From assembly GCA_951406725.2 (NCBI GenBank), contig OX597820.1:102300001-102364000 (forward strand): a DNA stretch of 64,000 nt. Direction: 5' to 3'. This stretch comes from Octopus vulgaris. Lineage: Eukaryota. Within the stretch, counting starts at the first letter, position 1; each line of letters starts with the position of its first letter. This document shows positions 4,462 through 62,635 of the stretch, one piece after another. The notes under the pieces are model-generated. The model worked only from the letters and a program-made list of their open reading frames with translations, did no database searches and was not told the origin of the DNA. Position numbers and translations under genes: made by a program.

Positions 4462-4785
4462 TTGCAGCGTGGAAGGTGTTTGTAAGCCATTTAAGAAACA
4501 CACAAAAACCGTTACATTCACTTCAACATTTAAATTTAATTTGCCAAAATATTTTCGTCGCTTTGAGACCGCGACCTGTTCACTGACAAAAATATCGTGC
4601 TAACAGGTCGCGGTCTCAAAGCGATGAAAATATTTTGACAAATTAAATTTAAATGTTGAAGTGAATCTAACGGTTTTTGTGTGTTTCTTAAATGGCTTAT
4701 AAACACCTTCAACGCTGCAACTGTTTTCGTTCCAGCACACGATCTCAGATCAAGTCACTTGCTATGCAAGTACATCTCTGTAACT
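4462..4785 (+). mobile_element. PLE-like fold-back element (arms 4462-4580 and 4602-4720) in (TA)n
   Basis: 119-bp inverted arms with few mismatches; right arm continues to 4785; HHR motif inside. Confidence 0.75.
4540..4590 (-). ncRNA. Minimal type I hammerhead ribozyme, G3-C8 core variant
   Basis: UUUGUCA GUGAACA G GUCGC-loop-GCGAC GAAA AUAU UU UGGCAAA; stems I and II pair; palindromic AAUAUU stem III. Confidence 0.7.
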
Positions 4786-5760: not shown

Positions 5761-5879
5761 TACAGTATATATATGCATATATATATTTATATATGTATAT
5801 ATATGTATATATGAATATACACACACACATGCAAATATATATGTATATATACAGACACACACACACCCACACACACACA

Positions 5880-6119
5880 TATACTTTATTTAAAAGCAGC
5901 AGAAATTCAACAAAACCTGTTATTCGGAGTTTCCCGTTCCTGTTCGTCGGACAGTTTTGTTAAAAAGAAGAAAAAAAACTGTCCGACGAACGGGAAGTGA
6001 AACTCCGAGTAACAGGTTTTGTTGAATTTCTGTTGCTTTTAAATAAAGCATATTACTCTACCCCTGGTATTTGAGTACTCTTTTTTCCACCTTGTTTCAC
6101 ATTTATGTGTTTACTCCGG
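5880..6119 (+). mobile_element. PLE-like fold-back element with C4-variant HHRs (5917-5954 minus, 5979-6015 plus)
   Basis: About 78-bp inverted arms; CUGU CCGACGA..GAAA CUCCGAG UA ACAG; same family as 62636-62866; TA-flanked. Confidence 0.7.
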
Positions 6120-11148: not shown

Positions 11149-11189
11149 ATTATATATATTTATATATACACATATATACATATATACAC

Positions 11190-11235
<46 letters not shown>

Positions 11236-11353
11236 AAAAGCAATAAAGATTCAAGTTAATTTAAAAGAATTTACTTGAATATGGTACCTAACTTAGATGC
11301 ACCAAAAAAAACTATACTGATTTAACAATACAGTAATGTGGGGTGATTATAAG

Positions 11354-12400
11354 CGAGAATGAAGCAACAAGAATGGATAGGTTTTTAGTACAATCGTTTC
11401 ATACAAGGACAGGTTTTATTAAAAGTTGCAAAAATTACAGCATATAAACGTGTCCCGTACTCATCAGCTAAAATACATGTGAGTTCTCTAGACATCCTAG
11501 TGGTTGAGGCTATACTCATGAAGTAATGTAGATAATTAAGTAACATAAACAGATTTCAAAAGTTCATTCAAGTTCTTTAAAGATGATGTACAGTCTTATC
11601 ACAGAATTTTAAAAAAGTCTTAATAGCATCACAGAGAAGGTGACCCAATCCATAGTGCACATATGCATTTCCAGAGATATGATGAGGGATTACATACTCA
11701 CAGAAGGCAAATTTATCCATTGTTAATTACAACGAGGTGGGTTTCAATTCCTGCTTATTAGAATTACAGAGAGGGTGAATTAATCCTTTGTATAGATGCA
11801 CAATTTCCAATGGTGTAGGTGTAAATTTCAAGGAATTTCATATTCACAGGCGATAAATTTATCAATGGTTGAACACAATGAGGTAGGTATCAATTCTTGC
11901 TATATGATTAGGTATTTGCCACATTAATCACATTACTGCTATTTACAAGAGGCTGTAGCTATTTAACTTTTAAAGGCTGAAGGGCTTACTAGAGCTGTAT
12001 AGAATAGAAAAGGGAAGGGCATAGAAAAAAAGAGAGAAAATAAAAGAGAGAAAATAAAAGAGGAGGGAGTAAAAAGGGGGGAAAGGGGGACTCAAAGAGA
12101 AGAGAAAAGGAAAAAGAGAATAAGAAGAAGAAAAAGAAAAAAGAGAAAGAAATAGGGAAGGAAGGGAAAAAAAGAAAAAGAAGAAAAAAGAAAAAAAGAA
12201 AAAAGAAGAAAGAAGAAAGAAAAAGAAAAAAAAGGGTTCTAGTTATACAGAAGAATTAGTAGACGACAAGTCTGGTTTTAGTTTACAGGCATCTAGGAAT
12301 TAGAGGAGAATATTATTCTTTGACCAGTTAAAACAGTTAATTTATTGCTGTTGAAATCAGCTATGAATTTAAAGAGAATCTAAAGAGATAACACAGTTAG
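11354..12400 (-). repeat. Left arm of 1.05-kb inverted repeat (PLE 3' UTR/pLTR)
   Basis: Reverse complement of 14157-15201, apart from about 1 substitution and a 2-nt length difference seen by eye. Confidence 0.95.
11383..11473 (-). ncRNA. Type I hammerhead ribozyme (canonical core)
   Basis: UUUUAG CUGAUGA G UACGGGACA..UGUCCUUGUA U GAAA CGAUUG UA CUAAAA. Confidence 0.85.
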
Positions 12401-12981
12401 GGGTTTCGGGGGTCAGATGCTAAAATCACCAGAAAATACATTAGGGAAAACTAGGTATAATCTTATCAAAAAGTCATCAAAATTTACTTATTTAATTTAT
12501 TCATTTTATTGTCTTAAGGAGTTGCCGTTATTATTCATACATTGACGGACTACAGGTCAAATCTTAGAAGATCATTTAAGAGGTGTTAGGGGATTGTCTA
12601 TCATAATGAAGATAATCATATTATCACCGAGGGAATAGTCTCATTTATTTAATTTTGAAATAGAATTATGGGTCTATAGTAACCCAATTTAATTAATTAG
12701 AGTTATGCTAATTAAATTAGATTAAGTTAGGAACTAAAATTAAAAATTACAATTAAGATTTAAAATTAAGAATTTAAAAATTTAAAAATTGTGAGTTTGA
12801 AATTAAATAAAGCCTCAATTAAGCAGCGAATAAGTGCTATTCATTTCCCTGTTCTCAAAAAACTGATGCAGATATAGGAAAAAGATAACCGTAGTGTGAG
12901 AACTCTTAGTTATCTACTTAAAGCAGTGCTATACCAGTAGAAATCAGGTTATATCTATCTATCTAGTTACGAATATTCTAA

Positions 12982-13953
12982 TCATTTAAAATATTTTAAA
13001 GTCTTCAATTTAGCGTGGACACAAACTTGACCTAGTTCGATATGGTTATTCAATAGGTTTCTATGTTTTCTATGCTTTAGAATTTCATATGTCTCCATGG
13101 AGCATAGTTGGCAACCAACCCTACTATTTTTATACGGAATTGCTCTCCTAACTATTTCCCAATTAAGGTTATAATTTTTATTATTATTTTTGAGTTCCCA
13201 GATTTTGTTTGAAAGTGTGGTGGTACCAGCTTTATGACGTAATTTAAAAGTCGAGATGTGATTTCTAACTCTAGCTAAAAAATTAATTGTACATCCAATG
13301 TAAAAATATTTGTTATTCTCCGTGGATATGGTACATTTATAGATTACATTATTTTCTCCACATAGACCAGGTGCCGGGCATTTTGATTTTATTCTACACT
13401 TACACACAGGAGGAACACCTTCAGGCTTTGGATTATTCTTGGGTAGATGTTTTAGGTTCCTATTATTTTGATTATCATTTCTATAGTTGGTGCTGATATC
13501 TAAAGTATTGCTATTATTTCTTGATCCTTCTGTTTCATTATTTAGATCTAAAGTCCTACCATGATTTCTTATATTATTGGTAATGTTAATATTATTGCTA
13601 GTCTTTTTATCCGACTTCATATTGTTGTTATAGATATCACTAATATTTTCATTCTCCTTATTTTCTCTATTTTCCCTATTTCTATTATTTCTATTATTAA
13701 CATTATTACTTCTACTAATATCGGCATTGCTATTATTACTATTAATGTTAATGCTATTAGTCATTCTGTGGTTACTAATTTCACCTATGTTTTGATAGTT
13801 ACTATTGCTGTTTTTATTGTTGGTAGTATTATTACAATTGCTATTGGTATTCATGCTGATATTATTATTATTATTATTATTATTATTTATATTTCTATCT
13901 TTCCTGGCTAGTTTAATGTTGTTATTATTAATCTTAGCTATTAAAGTGGACAT
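12982..13953 (-). CDS. GIY-YIG endonuclease domain of PLE polyprotein (C-terminal part) with Asn-rich linker
   Basis: CKCR..CP..G.C..NVIY..YIGCT..F..R..H..F..TTLS..IW.LK..W.I..Y..CQLC..E..I..LN..E..CVH matches the Naiad-type GIY-YIG pattern. Confidence 0.85.
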   Translation of the reverse strand: MSTLIAKINNNNIKLARKDRNINNNNNNNNNISMNTNSNCNNTTNNKNSNSNYQNIGEISNHRMTNSININSNNSNADISRSNNVNNRNNRNRENRENKENENISDIYNNNMKSDKKTSNNINITNNIRNHGRTLDLNNETEGSRNNSNTLDISTNYRNDNQNNRNLKHLPKNNPKPEGVPPVCKCRIKSKCPAPGLCGENNVIYKCTISTENNKYFYIGCTINFLARVRNHISTFKLRHKAGTTTLSNKIWELKNNNKNYNLNWEIVRRAIPYKNSRVGCQLCSMETYEILKHRKHRNLLNNHIELGQVCVHAKLKTLKYFK

Positions 13954-14112
13954 ATTTGGAGGGTTGAATAAGAAATCCTAACTGTTTTCCTAGAAATAAT
14001 TCTATGATATCTATGAGAGATAGGGAAATTTTTTTCCAGAATCACTTTGAATTTGTTCTGTATATCCGATTGTATCGCACAGTTGAAAGGAATATTCAGC
14101 CATAATATATCT
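13954..14112 (-). pseudogene. Frameshifted upstream continuation (post-RT thumb/linker) of the PLE ORF
   Basis: Translates DILWLNIPFNCAIQSDIQNKFKVILEKNFPISHRYHRIISRKTVRISYST and joins PNMSTLIAKIN after a 1-nt shift near 13962; fits the W.NPP..F..FP..H..I...SYS..PNM motif. Confidence 0.8.
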
Positions 14113-14156
14113 TTTTTTTTTTTTTTTTTTTATTAAATTTAGGGTTCGTAGAATTA

Positions 14157-15201
14157 CTAACGGTGTTATCTCTTTAGATTCTCTTTAAATTCATAGCTGA
14201 TTTCAACAGCAATAAATTAACTGTTTTAACTGGTCAAAGAATAATATTCTCCTCTAATTCCTAGATGCCTGTAAACTAAAACCAGACTTGTCGTCTACTA
14301 ATTCTTCTGTATAACTAGAACCCTTTTTTTCTTTTTCTTTCTTCTTTCTTCTTTTTCTTTTTTTCTTTTTTCTTCTTTTTCTTTTTTTCCCTTCCTTCCC
14401 TATTTCTTTCTCTTTTTCTTTTTCTTCTTCTTATTCTCTTTTTCCTTTTCTCTTCTCTTTGAGTCCCCCTTTCCCCCCCTTTTTACTCCCTCCTCTTTTA
14501 TTTTCTCTCTTTTATTTTCTCTCTTTTTTTCTATGCCCTTCCCTTTTCTATTCTATACAGCTCTAGTAAGCCCTTCAGCCTTTAAAAGTTAAATAGCTAC
14601 AGCCTCTTGTAAATAGCAGTAATGTGATTAATGTGGCAAATACCTAATCATATAGCAAGAATTGATACCTACCTCATTGTGTTCAACCATTGATAAATTT
14701 ATCGCCTGTGAATATGAAATTCCTTGAAATTTACACCTACACCATTGGAAATTGTGCATCTATACAAAGGATTAATTCACCCTCTCTGTAATTCTAATAA
14801 GCAGGAATTGAAACCCACCTCGTTGTAATTAACAATGGATAAATTTGCCTTCTGTGAGTATGTAATCCCTCATCATATCTCTGGAAATGCATATGTGCAC
14901 TATGGATTGGGTCACCTTCTCTGTGATGCTATTAAGACTTTTTTAAAATTCTGTGATAAGACTGTACATCATCTTTAAAGAACTTGAATGAACTTTTGAA
15001 ATCTGTTTATGTTACTTAATTATCTACATTACTTCATGAGTATAGCCTCAACCACTAGGATGTCTAGAGAACTCACATGTATTTTAGCTGATGAGTACGG
15101 GACACGTTTATATGCTGTAATTTTTGCAACTTTTAATAAAACCTGTCCTTGTATGAAACGATTGTACTAAAAACCTATCCATTCTTGTTGCTTCATTCTC
15201 G
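14157..15201 (+). repeat. Right arm of 1.05-kb inverted repeat
   Basis: See 11354-12400. Confidence 0.95.
15082..15172 (+). ncRNA. Type I hammerhead ribozyme (canonical core)
   Basis: CTGATGA at 15088, GAAA at 15155, GUA cleavage triplet 15164-15166, stem I TTTTAG/CTAAAA. Confidence 0.85.
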
Positions 15202-15795
15202 TATATATATATATATATATTATGTATTTATGTATTTATATATGTATACACAAATACATACAAACACACACATGTACACACACACACATTTATATATGGG
15301 CAGATAGCTAGATAGAGATAGATAGATAGATAAAGAGGAAGAGAGTCAGACAGACACACAGACAGACAGACAGACAGACAGAGGACTACTGAGAGAAAGG
15401 TTTGTCAAGGTAATTTTCTTCAGCAAATGTAAAAAAGAAAGACTTAGATTTGCTATAGCTATGTTATAGACTGTATAAAATGGCTAAAATGTTGTTCTTG
15501 GCACTTAATGAGACACTGATAAATCATGATAAAATATTTTATGACATTTATTTATTGATCTCTCTTGGTTTTATATTTTTAATTTTTGCTTTTTTTTATA
15601 TGGTTTCAAGACAGGAATGTATATAATGATAAATGGGGTGCGGGTGGGGGTGAGAGGTGAAGTAGAATAAATATTATCAATCTCATGCTTCATTTCAAAA
15701 GTCAATATATATGTATATGTATGTGCATGTATGTATGTATATACATATGTATATACGCATATTTTCATATGTATATATGCATATACATATGTATA

Positions 15796-18884: not shown

Positions 18885-19775
18885 TCTAGAAGAGTAGAAA
18901 GGAAATTAATTCTGAGACTGTTTACTTCTGAACAATTCCTTGTCTAGTACCTCTAACACAAACAATAAAGAATACTCAATCCACAATACTGTAAAATACT
19001 GTTAAGCATGTGTGTGTGTGTGAGAGTGTGCATGAAATCTAAGTTGCAATAATCTTTTCTACTCTAGGCACAATTCCCGAAATTTTTGGGGAGGGATCCA
19101 GTTGATTAGATTAACCTCAACTTGTACTTAATTTATCAAAGTTGACCTTAGCGGAATTTGAACTCAGAACATAAAGACAGACAAAATACCACTAAACATT
19201 TTGCTGGGCGTGCTAATATTTCTGCTAGCTTGTTGCCCTATCTAAGTTGCATAATATGTTATGACTTACAAAGAGGCAAGCTGGCTGATTCGTTAGCACA
19301 CTGGGCATAATGCCTAGTGGTATTTCATCCGCCTTTACGTACTAAGTTCAAATACCATCATGGTTTATGTTTTTGTTCATCCTTTCGGAGTCGATAAAAA
19401 TAAGTACCTGTTGAGTACTGTGATCAAGGCAATCGACTTACGTCCTCCCCCAACCCCTGGAATTGCTGGCCTTGTGCCAAAATTTGAAACCAATATGTTA
19501 TGACTGACGTAACACACTGTCTTCTTATAAAATAAATACCAGCGATATGCTGTGGATTGATTCAATTGATTAGTTTCTTCTGTTCTATAGACATTGATTT
19601 TAAACTAACTGCTAATAAAGTGAAGAACTGAATGTGAGAAATAGACATTATTGGATGAGAATACGGCACAAAATGAATTTGAGAATGCAATCTTTAAAAA
19701 TCTGATAACATTAAGGTATATGTATATACATACTTATATACATACAAACACACACACACATGTATATACATACAA

Positions 19776-26719: not shown

Positions 26720-26728
<9 letters not shown>

Positions 26729-27188
26729 ACAATTCAAAGGAAAAATCCAGGGGAATAATTACAAGGTAGCTAAATGTTGCTTAAGTGTCTCAGGATTTAA
26801 ATCCAGGATAGTAAGTCGCATTTAGTAGAAAATAGGAAAATTGAAAAGGAGACAAACTCTCAGGATGTTGTTGAACCATTTATATCTTGAATTCTTCTAC
26901 ATAAGTTTCGGTGGATGTACTCCAAAATGTCTGACAGGATAAATTATGGTCAGTTATACATCAATCTCATCAGGAAGGATATAAATAAAGGACTTTCTAT
27001 TTCTGTTCACATGTTTGTTTGATGAGTTTGTTATTTATATCCTTCCTGATGAGATTGATGCATTGCTCACCATAATTTATCCTGGTGGACATTTTGGAGT
27101 GTATCCACCGAAACATATGTAGAAGAATTCAAGATATAAATGGTTTAACAACATCTCAAGAGTATGTCTCCTTGTTCAAATTTTCCTA
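26720..27188 (-). mobile_element. PLE-like fold-back element (arms 26833-26988 and 27031-27188) with two canonical HHRs
   Basis: Plus 27042-27125 CUUC CUGAUGA G..C GAAA CAUAUG UA GAAG; minus 26894-26977 is the same motif. Confidence 0.75.
27042..27125 (+). ncRNA. Type I hammerhead ribozyme
   Basis: Canonical CUGAUGA/GAAA, palindromic ACAUAUGU stem III, CUUC/GAAG stem I. Confidence 0.75.
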
Positions 27189-27214
27189 TATATATATATT
27201 TATATATATATCAT

Positions 27215-32989: not shown

Positions 32990-34954
32990 TTACAGTAAAT
33001 ATTCAAGGAAATAAACTACCACCAGCTAGCTGAATACCCAATGTATTACACACAACACACAATACAAAACTAATATAACAAAAGACTGTGCCACACCTAA
33101 AAGAAATCACCCCCCCCCCCAAAAAAAAAACCTGACACAATACAATACCAGGAAGAGTTTGCACCCTTCTAACAACAAAATAGAACACACAATGCTGCAC
33201 AGACCCCAGCAACACAGAGGTGTAGCAGGTGATACAGTAGTAATTTGCCTGAAGCTACCAAATGTTGAACAATGATAATAATAATAACTAGCTGGACCCA
33301 GGAAAAATTCACAGAAAATATAGAAAATGTAAGCATCTGTAAATTGTGTGCTGGTACCATGAGAAATGTTTCTATATTGTGACAGTTAAAGGCAATGAGC
33401 TGGCAGAATTGTAAGCATGCAGGGCGAAATGCCTAGCGGTGTTTCATCTAACTTTATGTTCTGAGTTCAAATTCTGCTGAGGTCAACTTTGCCTTTCATT
33501 CTTTCAGGGTTGATAAATTAAGTACCAGTTGTGTACTGGGGTTAATCTAATTGACTGGCCCTCTCCTCACCAAAATTTCAGGACTTGTGCCCATAGTAGA
33601 AAAGTATATTGCGACAGTTACAGAATATAGAAAGATGGGTAAAACCGATGATTATATAATCCAACCAAAATATCTCAGTTACGCAAACATAAACAGAATT
33701 ACTATTTAGCCTTAAAATACATCATACATAATCAGAGAACCCTCTTGATTTAGTGGTATGGAATGTCTTTCTCGTATTCTTTTATTCTTTTTCTTGTTTC
33801 AGTCAGTTGACAGTGGGCATGCTGGAGCACCACCCTTTTGTCTTTAGTTTTGTTGTTCTGTACACCTGTTGGACAGTCCACCCTGGTGCATCCATGGCTG
33901 TAGAATCTATCTCAGTAGCACTGGCAGAGCAGGGATTCCTCAAAGTTATTTATGGTAGTATTGCACTTGTAAGTCCTCCAAAACAGGCCACTTATTTCAT
34001 CTTTGTTGGCTTTTAGAGTTTCTTCAAGAACTTCGTTGGTCTTACCCACCACTAGACTTCTATATATTGTTAACATAGAACTTCACACCAACTGGTAGAG
34101 GGCAGTGTGCACCTGATGGTATTTCAGATACCAGGCACCATTTCAATCTTGGTCTTTTCTTCACCCAAGACAGCAGCTCCACGAAAGAGATGAGCTGTGC
34201 AAAGGCATATTTTACAAACACTAGCTCACTAGCTAGGAAAATAATAATAACAATAACAATGATGATGATGATGATGATAATGATGACGATGCTGATGATG
34301 ATTTCTTTTATTTGTAGGAAGGGACATCTTGTGGGAAGTATTACAAGAATGATTTACAATTAGTGTGAGAATTTACTTAAAATATGAGGGGAAGAAAGAG
34401 AATGGAGTGGGGGAAGAGATAAAAAAAGTTTACTAAATTTGTGAAACCATAGTTGAAGTAGATTTTCCTGATAGAGAACCTCCCTCCCTGACCCAGTTAG
34501 GGCCAATCACAGAGCCCCACTGATCCAAGACCTCTCTGATCAGCAAGGACACAAACTCTTGTCCAGTTGTCGTTCTCCAGTACACAAGCACAAGCCTGGA
34601 GTAGTTCCAGACAAATATATTAAAAAAATCTCAGCAGTTATAAACAAACAGAAAATAGTAGCACTTAGCACTGTCTACATATTACATAAAGTACTGTTAG
34701 TACAATAGCAAAGCAGAACCAGATGATGATGATGATGATGATGATCCTTTCTGTTAAAGGCACAAGGCCTGAAATTTTTGGGGAGGAGACTAGTTGATTA
34801 CATCAACCCCAGTGTTTCACTGGTACTTAATTTATCAACCCTGAAAGGGTGAAAGGCAAAGTTGACCTCAGTTGAATTAGAACTCAGAACGTCAAGACCA
34901 ACGAAATGCTGCTTAACATTTTGTCAGGCGTGCTAACAATTCTACCAACTCACC

Positions 34955-36664: not shown

Positions 36665-37075
36665 CTTTACTCTTTTACTCTCTTTTACTTGTTTCAGTCA
36701 TTTGACTGTGGCCATGCTGGAGCACCGCCTTTAGTCGAGCAAATCGGCCCCAGGACTTATTCTTTGTAAGCCTACTACTTATTCTATCGGTCTCTTTTGC
36801 CGCACCGCTAAGTTACAGTGACGTAAACACACCAGCATCGGTTGTCAAGCGATGTTGGGGGGACAAACACAGAAAAACAAACATACACACACACACATGT
36901 ATACATATATACGATGGGCTTCTTTCAGTTTCTGTCCACCAAATCCACTCACAAGGCTTTCGTCGACCTGAGGCTATAGTAGAAGACACTTGCCCAAAGT
37001 GCTACGCAGTGGGACTGAACCCGGAACCATGTGGTTGGTAAACAAGCTACTTACCACACAGCTACTCCTACGCCT
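36665..37075 (-). mobile_element. SINE family A, full length
   Basis: Homology to 1793-2190. Confidence 0.85.
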
Positions 37076-37741
37076 ATAACTGTTTCTTATTTTTATTTTA
37101 CGTTTAGTTAAATTTTTCTCAGGTTAAGTTACACCACACTAAAAACAAACAAACAAACAAACCATCTTCCCATCCCACAACAAAAAATCTAATATTTTTG
37201 GAGCTACTTACAATTTTAAAGAATTTCCTTTTTTTTCATTCTCATTTCCAAGAGGTGTACTAGATTTGTCCCTTCCAAAATCTTGGTCCATTGCCATTTT
37301 ACTTCACTGATTTCTTTGTAACTTGTAGTAGAATCACAGTTATAGAGTTCACAGTTTAAGAAGCCATGTGTGTCTTTGACCAAATGTTTATTATGGTGCC
37401 GCTAGATTACAGCCTGATTATAGGTATATTGACGCAAGTAGATATATTTATACATACATACAACCCCCACACATGTGTGAGTGTGTGTGTTTATATATAT
37501 GTATATATATGTGTGTGTGTGTGTGTATAGATATATGTATATGTATATGTGTGTGTGTGAGTGTGTGTGTGTCTATGAATGTATGTATGTATGTATGTAT
37601 GTATATATATATGTGCGTGTATGTGTGTGTGTGTATGTATATGTAAATGTATATGTGTCTGTGTATCTCTTTGTGTAAGTTTATGAAATGTGTTTAAAAG
37701 TGTATAAGTATATAAGTGTACGTGTATATATATGATTGGAG

Positions 37742-40969: not shown

Positions 40970-41152
40970 AATAAAAACGATTTTATATTAAATTGAAGGA
41001 GTACTCAATACCTTTGCTAGAGTACATATTTATTATTGTTTAGCAAGTAGTATTGACAGTGACTTTGAAGTTTCAGCCAGTTAAGCTATGATTGGACAGT
41101 CCAATGATGGTTTAGGTGGGCCAAACGTTGGAGTCACTGTCAATACTTGCTT
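40970..41152 (-). mobile_element. Decayed PLE-like fold-back hairpin centred at 41098; HHR relic 41095-41141 (+)
   Basis: Arms 41042-41097 and 41099-41152; GACAGU CCAAUGA U GG..CC -AAA CGUUGGAG UC ACUGUC. Confidence 0.6.
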
Positions 41153-43780
41153 TGTTAAAGAAGAATACACACACACACACACATGCACACACATCCACTT
41201 ATTCAAATGATTTGTGTTTAGTATCACTATAAAAACAAACTTAAGCATAGCCAACTTCTTGAATGTAACAGATTTAGCTGCTCATTTGTATTAACCTCAC
41301 AGTAAGCCCAGAGAGATGATGGCCTACAATTAACACCGGGGCTTGTCACCTATCCCTTGCTACTTAATTACTAGTTAAGGGAGTAAGCAAAAAGACATTG
41401 AGCCTGTCTTCTCATAAAGATATGTTTTGATAGGGTAGCTCCTATTATAACAATGCCCCTGCAGCAAATGGATTTAAAGAGAATTTCACTTACAACACTC
41501 TCAACAAGGACCAGCCAAAAACAATGCTGATGCACTGTAATTTGGTTCACATCCCCTTTCTCCATTAGTGTGAAGTCCTGCATATTAAAGCTGTCCTTAA
41601 GTTAGTTAATAAGCATTTTCCTTCCAGATACAGGCATAGAAAGCTTTTCAATAGGCACAAACTTCAAATCTTTTGGTTGTTAATTTAAAGGTAATACAGA
41701 AATAAGGAAAAGCATGAATATCACACAATTTCATCTTCCTCTCCAATAAATTGCATCATTACTAATAAAAAAAGAGCCACTAATTTTTCTTATTGTTTAA
41801 CCCAGGTCGACACTGATTAAGCATGCAAAATAAAGGGTGTTTCTTTCATGACCATCTCCCTTTTCTTTCAGCTGTTTTTGTGTCTGGGACAACAATAATG
41901 AATAACATATTTTTAAGATGGTACAGTGATATTTAAGGGACTTGTAGCTGCTATTTCTAGCAGATTGAATGACCATGTATCAGTCAATAATATTTTTCTT
42001 TCTAATTTTGGCACAAGGCCAGCAATTTTGAAAGGAAGGGCAAGTCATTAGAATTTACTCCAGTACTTGAGTGGTACTTTGATTTATCAACCCAGAAAGG
42101 GTGAACAACATAGTTGACCTTGTCAGAATTTGAACTCAGAATATAGTGAATTAGAAGAATTACCACTAAGCCTTTTTGTCAGATATGCTAGCTATTCTTC
42201 CATTTCATCACCTTTAAAGCACCAATAATATTAAGAAGTAGTAAATTTCTGTAATAATGGTTTTCAACGCCACAAAGCTAAAGTCAATAATCATAGGGTC
42301 TAAAATCGGAATGTAGAGGAATGAAACTAAATATTATTGTACAATTAGTCCAGCACTCAACCATTTTTAACTACATACCAGCTTTACAATGAAGAATATT
42401 ATTAGAAGAATTTCAAAAGAAATTGGCAAAGTACAGGTGTGTCAATATGTTATCAGATTACACAGCTCAGACGGAATTATATTAATCTTCAGCCAGGCAT
42501 ATAATGAAACATTATATAATAAGTCAACAGAGTTGGTACATACATACATACATGCATACATACATACATACATACATACATACATACATACATACATGCA
42601 TGCATGCATGCATGCATACATACATACATACATACATACATATACACACACATGCAAACACACATATATACATACAAAAATACATATATGTATATATACA
42701 CATACATATATTCTCTATATACATACACACACACTTACACACATACACATGCACACACACATATATTTATATATATATACATACATATACACATATATAC
42801 ATTCCATGCTAGCATGGAGAACGGACGTTAAACGATGATGATGATGATGATGATATGTATGCATGTATGTATACATGTATGTATACATGTATGTATGTAT
42901 GTATATATGTATGTAGGAAAGTATGTATGTATGTATGCATGTATGTATGTATATGAATATTTGTGTGCATCCGTGTATGTGTGTGCATATGCTAATAGAT
43001 ATATGCATGCTATTATGTTCATGAAGCATGTAATAAATGATAGTACAATTAATGAGATTAGCCAGTATATGTGTGTATGTATATGTATGTATATGTGTTT
43101 GTTTCTATATAGTATGTAGGTGGACATGCAAGCACAATGCATCTATATCTGTGCGTGTATGTATGCTTATGTCTATATATATGTAAATATACACATCTGT
43201 ATGAATGGATGCTGCATAGCCAAATGGTTAAAAAGTTCACTTGCCAATCATGTGATCCGGGGTTCAATTCCACCCTGTGAATTCCAGCTGTTTTACACCC
43301 ATTGGCATACTTGCAAAATCAGAAAACAGCCCAGCATCCATGTCAATCGGAAACACTTTTGCATGCTCAGAATTGCAGATGCATAGACTAAACTACCTGC
43401 ATCAGTTATTAGCTGTCTGCTTAATTGCAAGATTATAAAAGAAAGTATCTTGTTTTGTTCATGAGCCTTTTAATGCTTAGGTACTGCTAACTTTTATTGT
43501 CCCAGATATTGTGATCATTTGTAGTGTAAGAATTAAGGAGTTGCATTCTCGCCACAAGATCTCAAGTTCAGCTATACTTTGATCCAGATGAGTTGGTCTA
43601 TATCTTGCTGCTCCAATAATAATTAGATATGAAGCTGAAAGTGTGTCTCTATGTATGTATGAGTGTATGTTTGTATGCTTGTATATATATATATGTATAT
43701 ATGTATGAATGAATAAATGTATGTATGTATATATGTACATACATACATAAATACATACATGCAAACACACACATATATAC

Positions 43781-44295: not shown

Positions 44296-45043
44296 TATAT
44301 TAAGATAGTTATATGTGCTATAGTAATCTTATACACATGATAAAATAATAAAATATTTCTCATTAGTGATAAGGAGGATTAGCTATAATGATTATAAGGA
44401 TTAGCTATTTATCAGCTGTAATGGAGAATCATTAAAGAATCTTCATTATATCTAATAAAATGATTGCTTTGTGGTCATGAAATGCCAAGTCATCATTGGT
44501 AGAATATAACAGAATATGACTATAATCTAAGGGGCTCCAGCCATGACCTTTCCATCATTTTTCAGACATTATTATTTTTCTTACTTTTAAAATGGTATGG
44601 TGTGTGATTTGAGGTAGATTCAGTTATTATTTCTTGCAGGTCAAGCAAGTACATAGAACCGTCCCTTTTTAGACAGCAACATATTATTTGAAGAAGATGT
44701 AGCTGCTATTTCAAGCAAGCCCACTACTGCAATAGAGACACTCTTATTAATTGTCACTTATTATTGTCGTTGATGGTGTTGTTACTGTTATTTAGCCACA
44801 GGTCAACAATGATTGATGAGACCTAATGATTGATGAGGCCTATGACCAAAAGCATTTCAATTATAGCTATTTCACAGCCTACTTAGCTGGAAATCAATAA
44901 TAACTGACTGTTGGTGCAGCTCACTCTCCTTCCAGTTATCACGTCTTTGATGTTCCATAGGTTCAAATGTGGGATATCCAAGAGGGTGTCTACACCCATG
45001 TTTGTGACTACATAGGGATCTGAAACTAAAACAATTAGCAAAA

Positions 45044-45277
45044 GGCGGTGAGCTGGCAGAAACGTTAGCACGACGGGCGAAATACTTAACGGTATTTCGT
45101 CTGCCGTTAAGTTCTGAGTTCGAATTCCGCCGAGGTTGGCTTTGCCTTTCATCCTTTCGAGGTCGATAAATTAAGTACCAGTTACGCACTGGGGTCGATG
45201 TAATCGACTTAATCCATTTGCCTGTCCTTGTTTGTCCTCTCTGTGTTTAGCCCCTTGTGGGTAGTAAAGAAATAAAA
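45044..45277 (+). mobile_element. SINE family B with TSD
   Basis: Full length; TSD aattagcaaaa. Confidence 0.85.
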
Positions 45278-45710
45278 AATTAGCAAAAGCATGATCCATG
45301 CCATTAAGTCATACCTATTTGTGAGTGACAGCTATGGCCCCTTATCTATATTTTTTCTCTATCTAGATAAGTTACCCCTCCTGGGTTTGGCTTTGTCATT
45401 GTGAGGGGGCTTGCATGTTCCATAGACCGGAGAAAATGTTACTGTTTGGGGCTTTGCTCCTGGTAGAGCTATCCTAGGCTGGTGGCCAATCTCTCAGGGG
45501 GGTTCCAAATGAGCGATGATCCATGGCACATTGACCTGTTGCCAAAATGGCAGCCCCATCATCTGATTATTCTTTGAAAGACCAACAACCTGCCCAGAAG
45601 AACTCTCAACTTGCTATGGCACTGATCAGAAGAAACCAGAGGAAAAATGAGGTAAGATATAGTGAAGGTATATCGTTCAGTGTTAGGGTGTTGGTATATT
45701 GGTAATAAAA

Positions 45711-46027
45711 GGGCAGCGAGCTGGCTAGAGCGGCGAGCTGGCTAGAGCGGCGAGCTGGCTAGAGCGGCGAGCTGGCTAGAGCGGCGAGCTGGTAAGGGTG
45801 GCGAGCTGGCAGAATCGTTAGCACATCGGGTGAAATGCTTAGCAGTATTTCGTCTGCCGCTACGTTCTGAGTTCAAATTCCGCCAAGGTCGACTTTGCCT
45901 TTCATCCTTTCGGGGTCGATAAATTAAGTACCAGTTACGCACTGGGGTTGATATAATCGACTTAATCCGTTTGTCTGTCCTTGTTTGTCCCCTCTGTGTT
46001 TAGCCCCTTGTGGGTAGTAAAGAAATA
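45711..46027 (+). mobile_element. SINE family B with tandemly reiterated 5' head
   Basis: 17-bp unit GCGGCGAGCTGGCTAGA x4+; TSD ggtatattg(g/a)taataaa. Confidence 0.85.
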
Positions 46028-48639
46028 GGTATATTGATAATAAAGCAGTAAATTCAATTTCTGGGCTGAGTGGCACATTGTGTCTTTGTAAAAGACACTT
46101 GAAATTCATGCGGACCCAGTTTTCTTAGCAGAAAATGAGTAACAGCTGACTTACTGGTGCAGCTCTCTCTATCTGTCTATGTCTGATTGAGACTACATTA
46201 CTGTCCATTTTTTCATGCTTGCATGGATTAGATGGAATTTTGATGAGGCAGATTTGTTATAGCTGGATGTCATTTTGGTTGCGAACCCTCATCTGTTTCC
46301 AAGCAAGGTAATATTTCCCCATGATTAGACATATTTTCATGGGAGTTGAATGAAGGACACTGCTTGCATGATGGTGACACCATCACTTATTTTTAAAGCC
46401 TGGTACTTATTCTATTAGTCTTTTTTGCCAAAATGCTAAGTCATGGAAACATACCCAACAAAGACACCAAAGGCACACACACAAATACATACATACACAC
46501 ACACAGACACACACATATATACATATGTACTCACACATGTGCACACATGCACATACACACACACATGCATGCACACATGCACACACAAGGCTTTGGTCAG
46601 CCCAAGGCTGTAATAAAAGACACTTGCCCAAGGCACCATGCAATAGGAATGAACCTGGAACCATGTGGTTGGGAAGAAAACTTCTTACCATACAGCCATG
46701 CCTGCATCAAAACACTTGCCTAAGGTGCCATGCAGTGGAATTGAACCTAGACTTATGTGGTCGGAAAGCAAACTTCTTACCACACAGGTCGACTTTGCCT
46801 TTCATCCTTTCGGGGTCGATAAATTAAGTACCAGTTACGCACTGGGGTTGATGTAATCGACTTAATCCGTTTGTCTGTCCTTGTTTGTCTCCTCTGTGTT
46901 TAGCCCCTCGTGGGTAGTAAAGAAACAGGTATGCCTGCACCTATACCATACCTGTGCTCATACCATGCCTGCATCAATACCACACCTGTACCTATTACCA
47001 CGCCCGCATTATACATTGGTACCCAGTACAATCAACAAATATATGGTATATACTGTGATGTCATACATACTCGCAAACCTTGTCTATGCTTCTTTCCTTT
47101 GCCTATAAGTTATATCTGACACAATATGAAAGTAGGGTAGCATTGTGATGCCAATAATTTCAGAATGGAAGTCATGCTTGGTGATGGATAGAGATGTGTT
47201 AGATTTTGTTGTGATGCAGACAAATCTATCAAGCGTTTTCTATGGAGAGTAAATATCTATTATACTATATTTGGTTTTGTGTCTTGTCAAAAGAAATCAT
47301 TCTTATGTGATTGTATCTTGTATTTGCTTGTTCTATCTTTAATATTTTCCAAAATGGATTATGTGTATAAATCTTCTGTGTTGCTAAAGCAACTATGCTG
47401 GAGATCTGTACTGTACACAATATCACTATCATCATCATCATCACCACCAAAACCAGCAGCATCACCACCACCAGCAGCATCACCACCACCAAAACCACCA
47501 GCACCACCAGCACCACCAGCACCACCACCAGCACCACCACCAGCAACACCACCAGCACCACCAGCACCAGCATCACCACTACCACCAGCACCACCAACAC
47601 CAGCACCAGCACCACCACCAGCACCACCACCACCACACCACGACCACCACCACCATCATCGTCATCGTCATCAGCAGTACAATCATCGTTGTAGTCATCG
47701 CCATTATCAAACCCTAACCATAATCATCATTGTCATCATCATCTTCATCATCATAATTGTAGCTTTTGTCATCATTGTTGACATTTTCACTATCACCACA
47801 ACCACCACCATCACCACTGCCACCACTGTTATCATTATCATTGTCATCATTGTCATCCTCATCATAGTTGTTTTCATCCTTACCATGATCATTAGCATTA
47901 CCATCGTCATACTCATCACCATCGTCATCATCATCATCATCATCATCACCACCATCATCATCATTACCATGATGTTAGCACACATTGTCTAGTACTCGCA
48001 GCAACAGAGGGACTGTTCATCTTTGATGTAGTTTTGTTCATTCTATGGTTTTAGCCATTAAAATGCCCTTCCTGTCACCAACCACTTTAGAGCATGAGCT
48101 GGGTCCATTTTATCATGGAACTAGCTAAACATATGTGCGCGCACACACACACACACACATACACACACACTTATATATCATCATCACCAGCAGCATTACT
48201 TTTATGTCTGTATTTCCATAGAGACATATATGGGTTAGACAAGACAATATGAGGCAGTGCTTATATCGAGAATATTCCCAAAATACATACAGGATGAGCA
48301 AGGTTTAAATACACGATTATAAAAAGTATATACTTTATTTTGATATTGAGAGAAGCCCTAAGGAGAACTTGTCCACTTCACTGGTTTGGAGGATATGTGT
48401 GTGTGTGTGTGTGTGTATAGTTATGGTGTATTAGAATATACTATAACTATGCCGAAGCTACACCTGATTGTCCCCCTTCCATACTCATACACATATGTGT
48501 ATGCCATGACTCATGCACTGTTCTTTTCCTGACGCTTGTACATTACCCTATGTACTATACATACACTTTAGATGAGTTGTAGTGCAGCTGAGCACTGTAC
48601 ACAATGTTTTATTATTATTATCATTATTATAGTAGAATA

Positions 48640-48992: not shown

Positions 48993-49001
48993 CTGTGAGG
49001 C

Positions 49002-49144
49002 AAGTAGCTTGCTTACCAACCACATGGTTTCGGGTTCAGTCCTACTGCGTGGCACCTTGGGCAAGTGTCTTCTACTATAGCCTCGGGCTGACCAAAGCCT
49101 TGTGAGTGGATTTGGTAGATGGAAACTGAAAGAAGCCCGTCGTA

Positions 49145-49184
<40 letters not shown>

Positions 49185-49405
49185 CATGTGTGTTTGTGTG
49201 TCTGTGTCTGTGTTTGTCCCCCTAGCATTGCTTGACAACCGATGCTGGTGTGTTTATGTCCCTGTCACTTAGCGGTTCGGCAAAAGAGACTGATAGAATA
49301 AGTACTGGGCTTACAAAGAATAAGTTCCCGGGTCAAGTTGCTCGACTAAAGGCGGTGCTCCAGCATGGCCACAGTCAAATGACTGAAACAAGTAAAAGAG
49401 TAAGG
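49002..49405 (+). mobile_element. SINE family A (5' clipped)
   Basis: Homology to 1793-2190. Confidence 0.85.
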
Positions 49406-49406
49406 A

Positions 49407-49442
<36 letters not shown>

Positions 49443-50059
49443 TTTTACTAAAGCCTAGAGTTTCACAGTTTTGAGAATTTTGCAGCTTTAATAAAAGCAT
49501 ATTACTCTACTTTTTGTATTTGAGTACTATTTGTTTTCCACCTTGTTTTGTATTTAAGTGATTACTTGTGTGTGTGGATATATATATATACACACACACA
49601 CATGTACATGCATTTATATATGTAGGGTGCAGTGAATAAACTGTCATCTAAATTACACAAAAATTCTTGCCAATAACATCTGTTAGTTGCCCCTCCCTCT
49701 TCCTTTAAATGGAGTCATGTGATTTAGGATTACAAAAAAGATTTTTTAAATGAAAGTAGGAAAAAGTAGTAAATAAAACTTGAAATTTTGTTCCTATAAA
49801 AGAAACTATGGAAACGTGTCATTGATCTTAACTTATTGTTAAATGCTTAGTGTAAAAACACATGTAAAATCTCTATACTCTGAAAGTATTGAGCTAACTG
49901 ATTATCATATCACATAATCTAGATTGTTGTGGCTGTTTACCCCCGAAACAGCACTGACTAAATAGGCATATGATCTTTCCTAGATATAGTTTATCTCAAG
50001 TTTCATTATTTGATTTGTCCTTTTTTATTCTTTTAAGATGCTTAAGCATTCAATCTTCA

Positions 50060-50871: not shown

Positions 50872-51240
50872 TATTTATAAAAGGTAAAAAAAGAGGGAAA
50901 ATAGAAAGCTTTTGACACTCCTGAGAAATTTATAAAACCTTTATATTTCAGGTGAAAAAGCCCATCTTCGAAAGAAAACGTCTGGGAAATGTCTAGTTAT
51001 GCAGGTTCCTTTAACCCCTTCAAATCACCTCGCGTTATGTAACAGCAGCACAAGTTAACGGAGCTTGCATAACTGGACATTTCTCAGACTGTTTTACTTC
51101 TGAAGATGGACCTTTGCACCTGAAATATAAAGGCTTTATAAAACTTTGTTCATTGTCAGAAGCTTTCTATTCTCTGTCTTTTTTTACCTTCTTCAATATT
51201 ACAATGCTTCAAGCAAACTACAACACACTTATCATTTATA
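50872..51240 (+). mobile_element. Decayed PLE-like fold-back element; HHR 51097-51132 (+)
   Basis: Arms about 50872-51015 and 51055-51199; CUU CUGAAGA UGG..CCU GAAA UA UA AAG. Confidence 0.55.
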
Positions 51241-53337: not shown

Positions 53338-54200
53338 CCAACATCAAGATTGTTTTAACAGCCACTTCTTTTATGCTTGCATGAGTCAGATGGAATTTGT
53401 TTGCAAAGTTTGTGGATATTCTTTTGCTAAAAGATCAAAAGGATCAGCTGCAGTTTGGAAGGTGAAACAGCTTGATGGCTGCACAATGCACAAAGTAATT
53501 CTTTGGCAGTTTGGAATGGGGTCTTGCAGGAATTGCATTACTGGATAAGCAACATAGTCCTGTTTTAGAGAATGCAGGAAGATTTTTGCAGATGTGAGTC
53601 TAAATTTTTTGCCTAAAGACCAGCAACAAAATATGAGCAAACCACTTGGGAGACTTAGTGCATTTGGTCTTTGTTTTGTGTGGGACATATAGGGATTTAT
53701 TCAAAAGGACAGCCAAGCTGTTTCTGGGTGTTACAAGAGGGAAGCACATAAAGCACTAAGTGTAAGTGGCCTACACTTGGTAGAGCTTCAAAGAGTCAGC
53801 TGAGATGAAGTGTCATGGAGTGTTGAAGAAAGGGCAACTTCTCTGTTATGTGGATGTGTTTTGGGTACCACTGATGAGGAGAGTCGTTGGACAACCTCAT
53901 AGGGGTAACGACAGACATAGGTTGGTAGCAATTAGGTTTATCTTTCAGTGTTTATATTTTAGTTGTTTCACTCATTAAACTGTGGCCATGCTGGGGAATT
54001 GAAGAATTTTTGCTGAAAAAATTCACTCCAGCACTTGTTTTTTTTTTGTAAAGCCTGCTACTTGTTCTGTTGGTCTGTTTTGCTGAGCTGCTAAGTTATG
54101 GGGACATAATTACATCAATACTGATTGTCAAGTGGTGATGGAGAGCAAACACTGACAAAGACACATACAGATATATATATAAAAGGCTTCTTTCAGTTTC

Positions 54201-54434
54201 TTATTTCTTTACTGCCCACAAGGGGCTACACACAGAGGGGACAAACAAGGACAGACAAATGGATTAAGTCGATTATATCGACCCCAGTGCATAACTGGTA
54301 CTTATTTAATCGACCCTGAAATGATGAAAGGCAAAATCAACCTCAGCAGAATTTGAACTCAGAAAGTAGCGACAGATGAAATACCAATAAGCATTTACCC
54401 CGGCATGTTAACATTTCTGCCGGCTCACCACCTT
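54201..54434 (-). mobile_element. SINE family B nested in a SINE family A copy (53960-54560)
   Basis: TSD gcttctttcagtttc at 54186-54200 and 54435-54449. Confidence 0.85.
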
Positions 54435-54601
54435 GCTTCTTTCAGTTTCTCTCTACCAAATCCACTCACAAAGCTTTGGTTGGCCCAAGGCATTAGTAGA
54501 AGACATTTTCCCAAGGTGCCATGCAGAGGGACTGAACCCAGCTTCTTACCACTCGGCCATGCTGGGAAATTTAGGGTATTTGGCACATCTATGGTCTAGG
54601 A

Positions 54602-54749: not shown

Positions 54750-55885
54750 GTTTAGGATATGTGGGTGGGATAAGATAGTTTAGTGAAGAGAATTGATGAA
54801 TGCAAAAGGCTTGTTTTTCACAGGGTAGCTTAAGTCATCAGATATAATGATTTCTGAGAGGGGTCGGAATGGGTTATATGTTCTCAGAACATGATGAAAT
54901 ATGCTTAAATAGATGCTGGTAGTTCAAGAAATTAGGAGAATGATAAAGGGAGCTGATGTATTTGGAGAAGTACAAGAACTTGAATCATTATTGCTGATAT
55001 TCATATAAGAAAAGTGACCGACAAGGAGCATGGCGAATATGTAAGTATAGACACCACCTTTCATAGTGAAAGTGTAATAGAGAGCATAATGGATTTGGCT
55101 TCACTGCATGGCACCTTGGGCAAGTGTCTTCTACTATAGTCCCCAAGCTGATCACTGGCTTGTAAGTGCATTTGGTAGGCAGAAATTGTGTGTTTGTGTA
55201 TATATGCATGTGCATGCGTTTGTGTGTGTGTGTGTGTGTGTGTGTGCACATGCATGCACATTTGTATTTCTCCCTGCCGTAACTTGACAACCAGTGCTGG
55301 TTTGTTTACACTCCTGTAACTTAGCAGTTTGTCAAAAGAAACCAACAGAATAAGTACCAGACTTAGAAATAAGTAATGAGTGGGTGGGGGTCAATTTGTT
55401 TGACTTAAAACCCTTCAGGGTGGTACCCCATCATGACTGCAGTCCAATGGCTGAAACAAGTAAAAGAGAAAAAGATAGAAGGTAAACTGTGATGCTGCAT
55501 GGTCGTGAGATGTGGGCAGTGAATGCAGATCACAGTTTTAGACCTTCTGGATGTGTAATATTAGTATTCATGAATATAATGGTAAGCTGGCAGAATCTTT
55601 ACCATGCTGGACAAAATGCTTAGTGGCATTTCTTCTGACTTTATGATCAGAGTTCAAATTCCACAGAGGTCAACTTAACCTTTCATCCTTTCAGGGTCAC
55701 TGAAAAAAATACCAGTTGAGGACTAGGGAAGATGTGATCAACTTACCCTCTTCCCTGATATCGCTGTCAACACTTTGGTGTAGCAATAACAGAAGTATAG
55801 AGGTGAAGATTCGTCTGTACAAAACAGCAATACTGCTAACATTATTTACATTTGACGGATATTTGTCCTCATCTTGTTTGTTGTT

Positions 55886-55931
55886 AACACAATGTTTCAG
55901 CTGATTTACCCTCCAGCCTTCATCAGGTGTC
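55886..55931 (-). ncRNA. Minimal type I hammerhead ribozyme
   Basis: GACAC CUGAUGA A GGCUG-loop-CAGCU GAAA CA UU GUGUU. Confidence 0.7.
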
Positions 55932-56009
55932 TTGGGGAAATTTCAAACCTGGGTTGTCATTCCTAAGGTAGTTTTCAATGTTATTATTATTATTATTATT
56001 ATTATTCAG

Positions 56010-56081
56010 GTCACTGCCTGGAATTGAACTCAGAATTTTGGGGTTAGTAGCCCGTGCTCTGAACTACTACACCATATTCCC
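56010..56081 (-). promoter_or_regulatory. tRNA-like Pol III A/B-box module within PLE 3' region
   Basis: TGGTGTAGTAG A-box, GGG-CTACTAA-CCC anticodon-like arm, GAGTTCAATTCC B-box. Confidence 0.6.
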
Positions 56082-56110
56082 GTGGGAAATTACAGAGTGA
56101 ATTTTAGGGC

Positions 56111-56347
56111 TTATAAATCGAATATTTTCATATCCTTCCTTAATACTGGTTCCCATATGCTACTCATATCTGCACTTGGTCTGCTTAGGAGGTTGTATCC
56201 TAACATATGTGCTGCTTCTTTTAGTTTTCGTATTTTCCAGCGGTGTTCTCCATCAATTATTTTAATTTCATCCCACAGGGAGAGGTGGTCTCCATTTTTC
56301 AATACATGATCAGCTATACCCAATTTATCAATATCTTTCTGTGTCAC
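56111..56347 (-). pseudogene. GIY-YIG endonuclease C-terminal fragment of a PLE
   Basis: GIADHV..GDH...WDEIKIID.E..WKIRKLKEA..IWEPVL fits the AxH..H..W...I..E....R...EA..W.P pattern. Confidence 0.75.
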
Positions 56348-56647
56348 AGCTTTGCGATGTTCATATTATTATTACTATTATTATTAAGTGACCTGAATAA
56401 TAATAATAACAACAACAACAACAAGATTGAAAAATACCTTAGGAATGACAACCTAAGTTTGAAATTTCCCCAAGACACCTGACAAAGGCTGGAAGTTATA
56501 TCAGCTGAAATGTGTTAACAACAAACAAGATGAGGACAAACACACATACACACACATACGCATGCATAATCATCATTCTTATCAATGTCGTCATTGTCAT
56601 CATCATCATCATCATCAATATTGTCATCAATATCGTCATCGACACTA

Positions 56648-57060
56648 GGTGCAGGAGTGGCTGTGTGGTAAGTAGCTTGTTTAGCGACCACATGGTTCCG
56701 GGTTCAGTCCCACTGTGTGGCATCTTGGGCAAGTGTCTTCTGCTATAGCCCTGGGCTGACCAATGCCTTGAGAATGGATTTGGTAGACGGAAACTGAAAG
56801 AAGCCTGTCGTATATGTGTATATATATATATATATGTGTGTATGTGTGTGTATATGTTTGTGTATCTGTGTTTGTCCCCCTAGCATTGCTTGACAACCGA
56901 TGCTGGTGTGTTTATGTCCCCGTTACTTAGCGGTTCGGCAAAAGAGACCGATAGAATAAGTACTGGACTTACAAAGAATAAGTCCCGGGGTCGATTTGTT
57001 CGACTAAAGGCGGTGCTCCAGCATGGTCGCAGTCAAATGACTGAAACAAGTAAAAGAAAG
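56648..57060 (+). mobile_element. SINE family A, full length
   Basis: Homology to 1793-2190. Confidence 0.85.
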
Positions 57061-57384
57061 AAAAAAAGAAAGAAACACAGTTGAAAGCGAAAAGCCAAGT
57101 ATCCCCCCCACCAAAAAAAAAACTACATGTATGACAACAGAAACTATAAAAACAGCTTTTTTTATTCTTTTTTCTTTTTTCTCTCTCTTGTCAATGTATT
57201 CTATAAAAACTCAGTATAATTGAACTTTTAGTAATGTAGATTTATTGTATTCTTCATTGAACATTTACTTTGATATTATCTTTCCCTGTCATTTAATTTT
57301 ATGTGAACATTTGATTGCTTAAATATGTTTGATTTCTACGTAATTTTAAACTATGTTAATATCCCATCATTTTGTATACATTTG

Positions 57385-61966: not shown

Positions 61967-62635
61967 AAGTAGCTTGCTTACCCACCACATGGTTCTGGCT
62001 TCAGTCCCACTGTGTGGCACCTTGGGCAAGTTTCTTATACTATAGCCTTGGGCCAACCAAAGCCTTGTGAGTGGATTTGGTTGATGGAAACTAGAAGAAG
62101 CCCATTGTATATATATATATGTGTGTGTGTGCATGTGTGTGTATTTGTGTATGTTTGTATGTTTGTGTGTCTGTGTTTGTCCCTCCAGCATTGCTTGACA
62201 ACCAATGCTGGTGTTTTTACATCCCTGTAACTTAGTTTGGCAAAAGAGACCGATAGAATAAGTACTAGGCTTACAAAGAATAAGTCCTGAGGTCGATTTG
62301 CTTGACTAAGGCGGTGCTCTAGCATGGTCGCAGTCAAATGACTGAAACAAATAAAAGAATATCATATTCTTCCTTTTATTCCTTTATTCTTTTACTTGTT
62401 TCAGTTATTTGACTGCGACCATGTTGGAGCGCCACCTTGAAGGGTTTTAGTAAAACAATTTGACTCCAGGACTTATTTTTTAAGCCTAGTACTTATTATA
62501 TCAGTCTCTTACGCTGAACTACTAAGTTATGCAGATGTAAACACACCATCACAAGTTGTCAAGCAATGATAGGGTGATAAACACAGGCAGAAGGACATGC
62601 ACACACATAGATATATGGATATATATATATATATA

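Follow-up and report, generated by a model that had tools for sequence, protein, structure and literature searches.

Among Penelope-like elements (PLEs), the described systems that resemble the locus reported here include the Naiads and the Hydra clade. In the account of Craig et al. 2021 (PMC8557442), the nuclease of Naiads is N-terminal and carries CX2-5CxxC and CCHH motifs, a canonical hammerhead being absent, and the Hydra clade has a C-terminal endonuclease (EN), a CxCX5C motif, no CCHH, CxxC and CxH motifs, a hammerhead and insertion into (TA)n. The layout described for PLEs comprises an inverted copy, truncated at its 5' end, and a tail on one side only; 5' truncation is the rule (PMC8557442). 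Here we describe an insertion ending at 15201 in a 64,000-nucleotide stretch of the Octopus vulgaris genome (contig OX597820.1, positions 102,300,001 to 102,364,000; hereafter the window). It had been predicted to be a very young 'Naiad-type' PLE starting at 11233; its first base is in fact 11234. We are highly confident that it is a recent, 5'-truncated insertion, lacking the reverse transcriptase (RT), of an octopod Hydra-clade family, and we hold our explanation as a whole with almost the same confidence; the mechanism set out below is a probable one.

All six Hydra-defining features are found in the element. The nuclease is C-terminal, with a post-RT motif upstream and a stop codon and 3' untranslated region (UTR) downstream. 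The CxCX5C linker motif is present (CKCRIKSKC at 13404), as are the catalytic R, H, E and N. C105, C108 and E111 form a CxxC before the E, and N126, C135 and H137 a CxH after the N; these residues are kept in 65 to 84 of 85 relatives. CCHH is missing, a single Cys lying between VIY and YIG at a column that is Ala in 74 of the 85 relatives. A complete hammerhead motif lies in each arm, and the insertion sits in (TA)n, within which a target-site duplication is unreadable. The 'generally <3 kb' size of the clade, a typical and non-diagnostic trait, does not hold, as the sense copy, though truncated and devoid of RT, already measures 2.9 kb; we infer that a full-length copy is well over the typical 3 kb.

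The relatives point the same way. Among the best 150 protein matches, CxCx5C occurs in 89, CxxCxxE in 143 and N..CxH in 119, and none carries the Neptune/Naiad CX2-5CxxC ahead of the nuclease. RT-length relatives found with the Argonauta hians protein P0004 (n = 75) have YRDD before the CxC in 54 cases and ADKG in none; relatives of at least 670 amino acids have DKT or DKS in 34 of 34 and RW[KR] in 21 of 34. In an EN tree the window nuclease groups with P0001, from Octopus sinensis, and P0008 (support 0.998), and this group is sister to P0004 and P0162, RT-bearing proteins that are both from A. hians (0.959). P0001 (XP_029636861.1) is annotated 'myelin gene regulatory factor-like A' yet has an asparagine (Asn)-rich linker and a Hydra-type nuclease; the name is probably a misannotation.

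The earlier assignment to a PLE with a GIY-YIG nuclease is thus borne out, by the protein matches and by the structural match given below, but the Naiad label is not. It was contradicted by the original prediction itself, because that text placed the nuclease after the post-RT motif. Naiads do share the (TA)n target, the inverted copy and the tail, and they occur in octopus; with a C-terminal nuclease followed by a stop and 3' UTR, neither CCHH nor CX2-5CxxC, and a complete hammerhead motif, however, the probability that this element is one of them is negligible. Neptune, Nematis and Penelope-Poseidon were rejected for want of a CCHH with two Cys between GIY and YIG. Retrozymes have been described as tandem (head-to-tail) non-coding units with one type I hammerhead per unit (10.64898/2026.07.22.740005); a non-LTR retrozyme was rejected since the element codes for protein and its repeats are inverted, not tandem. 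Within the Hydra clade, with which it also shares the type I form of the hammerhead near the 3' end, the window element is oversized: its linker is 185 amino acids against a median of 31 in relatives, its 3' UTR measures 1.75 kb, where the consensus sequences compared have a few hundred bases, and its stem II spans 60 nucleotides (nt), while the 26 Hydra rows of File S2 (PMC8557442) do not go beyond about 24 nt. Hydra-1_Obim of Octopus bimaculoides has the same clade, an octopus host and the (TA)n target in common with it but, compared by eye, is a different family, with a short linker, a 3' UTR of about 0.2 kb and a hammerhead of short stem and other sequence; it is noted as lacking a pseudo-long-terminal repeat.

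The nuclease has the GIY-YIG fold. A phmmer search with the domain returned 3163 proteins at E up to 0.001. An AlphaFold2 model (86-sequence alignment, pLDDT 93) had GIY-YIG nucleases as its best structural matches, led by the catalytic domain of I-TevI (PDB 1ln0; Z 10.9, root-mean-square deviation 2.3 over 90 residues), a homing endonuclease of the same fold that lacks the Cys/His motifs and is 14% identical to the window nuclease. ESM Atlas gave GIY-YIG cluster names at 0.94-0.96, and a PDB sequence search returned only I-TevI (E 0.46) and one unrelated chain. Several results weigh against the identification. Pfam found no family in the whole open reading frame (ORF), and in the last 136 amino acids only GIY-YIG below threshold (E 0.005); Foldseek ranked the same family at weak E-values, with nothing below E 0.001. 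The Hydra clade is further marked in its RT by DKT and RWK and by the lack of an IFD; here, RT-specific marks were seen in relatives only, this copy having no RT. The EN tree comprises 45 sequences, built with FastTree without a non-Hydra outgroup. An RT tied to the exact family did not appear in the longer-protein search (0 of 71 candidates, which is weak evidence), and the search for proteins of similar length gave only P0001, itself without RT.

The minus-strand ORF at 12982-13977 runs for 331 codons without a stop, or the predicted 323 counted from the first ATG. The post-RT motif lies in the frame upstream of it, 13959-14129, whose matches to relatives have E-values of about 1e-16 to 1e-14. 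The earlier claim that the ORF continues into this motif through one frameshift stands as to the motif, but the break lies at 13957/13958 rather than near 13962, and a second break is probable in the T20 run at 14112-14131. In contigs of all four runs mapped, an extra G follows 13957, and with it the post-RT motif and the nuclease share one reading frame. The RT itself is absent: a tblastn search with the first 500 amino acids of 34 long relatives matched only the post-RT stretch. The copy therefore cannot move by itself. The earlier prediction mentioned neither this absence nor the 120-nt one-sided tail nor the probable second frame break.

The linker, from the PNM motif to the first Cys, has 185 residues, 66 of them Asn. 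The same distance has a median of 31.5 (range 24-142) in the 42 measurable of 153 relatives and 31 (range 28-51) in the 52 measurable of 75 RT-length relatives. Over its last 90 residues the linker is collinear with P0001, in the Asn-rich region of that protein, and we therefore assign the expansion to the lineage, although low complexity inflates the identity. Long linkers also occur in other Hydra-type proteins, namely P0076, P0018 and P0153 (106 amino acids at 42% Asn; 142 amino acids of different composition), and linker expansion thus arose more than once.

A truncated copy invites the question whether its family ever had an RT. It could be a nuclease-only, non-autonomous derivative mobilised by another Hydra element: protein searches found no RT-linked member, the nearest relative P0001 has no RT, and two contigs end at about 14100 beside the T run. 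Those contig ends, however, coincide with a repeat that is skipped in mapping, other copies retain the thumb-side motif after the RT in frame, a single ORF encodes both RT and nuclease in the sister clade, and 5' truncation is the PLE rule noted above; we regard such a derivative as highly improbable. A metagenome scan gave 545 pattern matches, none of them confirmed.

The Hydra-clade family to which we assign the insertion can also be followed in contigs. The middle 1.76 kb of the element is present in 20 of 24 listed runs, from 6 studies of one organism; none of the listed runs that contain it is on record as RNA. Contigs of 4 runs from 4 studies over 12401-14320 represent many near-identical copies (in run X6, 362 of 751 at >=99%; contig depth is a sum and is not taken here as copy number). 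In three of the four runs, contigs continue from the unique UTR into the arm (joint 12409/14157). Among the nuclease variants listed, 13 of 17 are synonymous against an expected 20-27% (p 3e-5 or less), a sign that the nuclease has been under selection in the source copies; the listed linker variants are non-synonymous in 4 of 4. Against this, the variant table covers 40 of 54 rows, with subfamilies down to 88% identity mixed in. The suggestion of a possibly active family finds support in these signs of recent function, namely the mostly synonymous nuclease variants and the frame-opening G in contigs. In O. vulgaris, 31 recently active Penelope-like families have been counted (PMC13282606).

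The arms give an estimate of age. The left is 1047 nt and the right, inverted, 1045 nt; they align with a single substitution at the inner end (12395/14162) and four 1-nt insertions or deletions, all in purine runs (left-arm positions 12076, 12137, 12199 and 12226). With 0 substitutions in 1041 nt, the upper 95% bound is 0.29%. Given that a Jukes-Cantor distance of 0.09 equals 25 million years (PMC13282606), the insertion is under about 0.4 million years old, provided the arms were not homogenised. On these counts the prediction of near-identical 1.05-kb inverted arms, of (TA)n on both flanks and of a young insertion is sustained.

That proviso deserves attention. The right arm could be a fold-back artefact of assembly or library, or the arms could have been homogenised by polishing or gene conversion and the copy be older than it looks. 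Among the contigs listed, none bridges the 14157 junction in the window's form, a point against our interpretation. Slips in homopolymers occur: the arms differ by four, and the window has one base fewer than the contigs at 12875 and at 13957. About 10 sites in the unique middle set it apart from most contigs, whereas the arms show no substitution over 1041 nt. On the other hand, the flanks are non-mirrored, element sequence makes up the 1.76-kb spacer, the end of the arm is a boundary defined by the element and meets (TA)n there, and four small fold-backs in the window, 90-96% identical, show the same layout. An artefact or homogenisation is therefore very unlikely. The arms also share an allele at 14220/12337 that about 98-100% of the contig depth does not have, which fits descent of both from a single donor. 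Adenosine-to-inosine editing was considered as a source of this copy's private differences and is unconvincing; four of ten hand-picked central sites have G for A in the sense orientation, and the two arm sites do not.

A mechanism can be proposed for the inverted layout of this young insertion. In AT-rich DNA, a PLE of the anole (PAc, or Poseidon, of Anolis carolinensis) cleaves either strand, and its tail lies between two sites at which RT starts; its hammerhead is protein-assisted and dispensable for insertion in vitro (Frangieh et al. 2024, PMC11167929). By analogy, the protein of an intact copy elsewhere would nick both strands of the (TA)n tract, which reads alike on either strand, and each nick would prime reverse transcription of the element's 3' end, in one case from position 11234, where the tail has its far end, and in the other from the tail's near end (15201, equivalent to 11354). 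One complementary DNA (cDNA) of 2.9 kb, stopping short of the RT region, and another of 1.05 kb would result, and their 3' ends would anneal at the 5-nt GTTAG/CTAAC match before repair closed the gap. The outcome would be two outward-facing 3' ends with a hammerhead on each; in a read-through RNA, just one of the hammerheads would be in sense orientation, and the arms would pair into a double strand of 1 kb. We consider two priming events joined at this match the probable course.

Related elements offer precedents. Penelope-13_HM of Hydra magnipapillata, a Hydra-clade element, likewise has a 5'-truncated inverted copy at its 5' end, of 966 nt, and one hammerhead per strand, but it differs in its short stem II and cnidarian host (Craig 2021 supplement, PMC8557442). 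PAc provides the mechanistic model, with double-strand cutting in AT-rich DNA, two RT starts bounding the tail and a protein-assisted hammerhead, but belongs to another clade and has a tail of 30-40 nt overlapping the ORF start, where the window tail is 120 nt with no ORF start seen; that the two-nick model derives from a Poseidon-clade element in vitro tells against its transfer here (PMC11167929). Two independent small fold-backs, in which the arm ends at an identical base and the tail is shared, support two start sites. The chief competitor is a snap-back, in which a single 2.9-kb cDNA folds on its own GTTAG at 12396-12400, copies back and halts at the tail hairpins. The 5-nt complementarity does sit on the cDNA strand itself, rare alleles common to both arms are expected, and the tail is strongly structured (z = -4.7; none of 200 shuffles was equally stable). 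Snap-back is nonetheless unlikely, as it needs an exact stop at the tail boundary and joining to (TA)n, that boundary is seen again in two small insertions of independent origin, and two tail-bounding RT starts have been shown in vitro.

The hammerheads are the remaining unusual feature. Each arm contains, in order, a 6-bp stem I, CUGAUGA, the 60-nt stem II, GAAA, a 2-bp stem III (closed by four bases) and GUA (+ strand, 15088; - strand, 11467). Stem II folds alone at -11.3 kcal/mol. A descriptor search of the 64 kb gave four matches, two in the arms and two in one small fold-back, and none in each of 10 block shuffles. The description of each arm's hammerhead as 'intact' is right for the sequence motif only: the hammerhead-constrained structure, at -10.5, is 2 kcal/mol above the minimum free energy of -12.5 (z = -0.4), a point against our interpretation, and Rfam scored nothing in the window at the gathering threshold and, over 11200-15300, gave seven weak matches at E up to 10, none of them a hammerhead. 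The eight stem III bases pair with a second copy of themselves (-5.8 kcal/mol), so a dimer is possible, and axolotl hammerheads with weak stem III cleave better as dimers (PMC7229834). Because stem III is only 2 bp with a self-complementary sequence, we propose that cleavage, predicted after GUA, is probably more efficient as a dimer or with protein help.

Long arms have precedent, since an EN-minus PLE of a spike moss has a stem II of about 53 nt (Craig 2021 supplement, PMC8557442), and two unrelated families in the window carry a long stem II (60 and 57 nt). It is possible, though doubtful, that functional hammerheads whose stem II spans about 60 nt are in use among octopod PLE families and escape Rfam and short-spacer descriptors. 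Five short motifs from the hammerhead region had no match in the Craig 2021 supplement, where line wraps may hide some, and no literature was found on long-stem hammerheads in cephalopod PLEs, most subscription papers lying outside the search. If the long-stem-II reading is true, the same form may explain the 'half-core' motifs reported in eight Naiads, with halves 35-50 nt apart.

Table 1. Features of the insertion and its flanks, in window coordinates.
Feature	Position	Strand	Basis
(TA)n target, left flank	11151..11233		sequence
One-sided 3' tail, 120 nt, two hairpins	11234..11353	-	missing from right arm; shuffles
Left arm: distal 3' UTR, sense orientation	11354..12400	-	arm alignment; contigs, 3 of 4 runs
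Type I hammerhead motif, sense copy; CUGAUGA core 11467, 60-nt stem II	11383..11473	-	ends mirrored from right copy
Predicted cut of sense-copy hammerhead, after GUA	11389	-	
71-nt direct repeat within UTR	11685..11901		11685-11755 vs 11831-11901, 77% identical; mirrored in right arm
Pyrimidine-rich tract (sense strand), containing all four arm indels	12028..12234	-	
Proximal 3' UTR, single copy in insertion	12401..12981	-	contig coverage
Hydra-type GIY-YIG endonuclease including stop codon	12982..13404	-	CxCX5C, VIY..YIG, catalytic R/H/E/N, CxxC, CxH
Linker, 185 amino acids, 36% Asn, in frame with nuclease	13405..13958	-	
Frameshift site, one G fewer than contigs of 4 of 4 runs	13957..13958		
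Post-RT motif: K-rich block followed by a stretch from WFNPP-like to KISY-like; remaining ORF has its 5' end here	13959..14129	-	
T20 run (A20 in sense), probable second frame break, outside read coverage	14112..14131	+	
Inversion junction: CTAAC complementary to GTTAG 12396-12400, then one mismatch	14157..14162	+	
Right arm: inverted 5'-truncated second 3' UTR copy, tail-less	14157..15201	+	arm alignment
Type I hammerhead motif, second copy; core 15088, GAAA 15155, predicted cut after 15166	15082..15172	+	
(TA)n target, right flank	15202..15248		

The features of the locus, including the direct repeat and pyrimidine tract of its 3' UTR, are collected in Table 1. The window also holds nine smaller fold-back candidates, for which the large element had been proposed as the large-scale model. 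The model holds for the layout in four of the nine (4462-4720, 5879-6053, 26832-27189 and 62701-62868), which have one arm on a dinucleotide repeat and a tail of 64-106 nt opposite, but these share no sequence with the large element. The other five, at 19153, 41031, 50881, 55862 and 62152, lack a clear arm-tail-microsatellite layout. The tails of the small fold-backs show no significant structure (z -1.2 to -1.5), and the hammerhead regions of the 26832 fold-back fold no better than shuffles. This last fold-back (26727-27189) is of an unrelated family, with arms 90% identical, a complete type I hammerhead motif in each, a stem II span of 57 nt, a 106-nt tail to (GA)n on the left and (TA)n on the right. 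The fold-backs at 5879-6119 and 62636-62868 form one small family with the same arm end and a tail of 65-66 nt; they have a hammerhead-like CCGANGA core without a good stem II, and their stems I and III resemble those of Hydra-2_Amil (PMC8557442 supplement). At 4462-4784, the arms are 96% identical, with a 64-nt tail and (TA)n on either side; a hairpin then GAAA is kept, with no clear first half of the hammerhead core.

The window holds further repeats. At 55862-56540, inverted 151-nt arms (92%) enclose a 371-nt spacer, and a CUGAUGA..GAAA core without a closing stem I lies on the - strand at 55926 in the left arm. A decayed plus-strand remnant of Hydra-type RT and thumb (41199-41676; tblastn E 7e-5 to 0.09) adjoins the fold-back at 41031-41167. 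Older palindromes at 19153-19356, 50881-51190 and 62152-62605 have arms 76-86% identical and no clear tail; in the second of them, a remnant with CTGAAGA..GAAA lies at 51100. Several families of dispersed repeats, in size (about 230-450 nt) like short interspersed elements, have up to 18 overlapping matches and include 1445-2198, 33374-33615, 36665-37077, 45041-46032, 48993-49443, 53951-54541 and 56642-57074.

Taken by itself, a single insertion of this kind is ordinary for its class, and this one is a real, young and well explained new member of the Hydra clade. It is of use because it captures, cleanly and soon after the event, the PLE inversion step, still undefined in the published account (PMC8557442): both 3' ends, the tail and the junction microhomology can be read. 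It also represents a second, recently functional Hydra lineage in octopods, with an oversized linker, UTR, tail and hammerhead arm. Annotation of such elements must be done with care: the ribozyme motif escapes Rfam, the nuclease escapes Pfam, and the closest relative in the databases bears a misleading name. Should octopod families indeed use long-stem-II hammerheads, short microsatellite-flanked octopus palindromes would be double-primed PLE 3' ends rather than miniature inverted-repeat transposable elements, and would provide a large natural data set for mapping RT starts and the inversion step. Octopuses belong to a lineage with heavy RNA editing, and the palindromes would then be a source of long double-stranded RNA within it.

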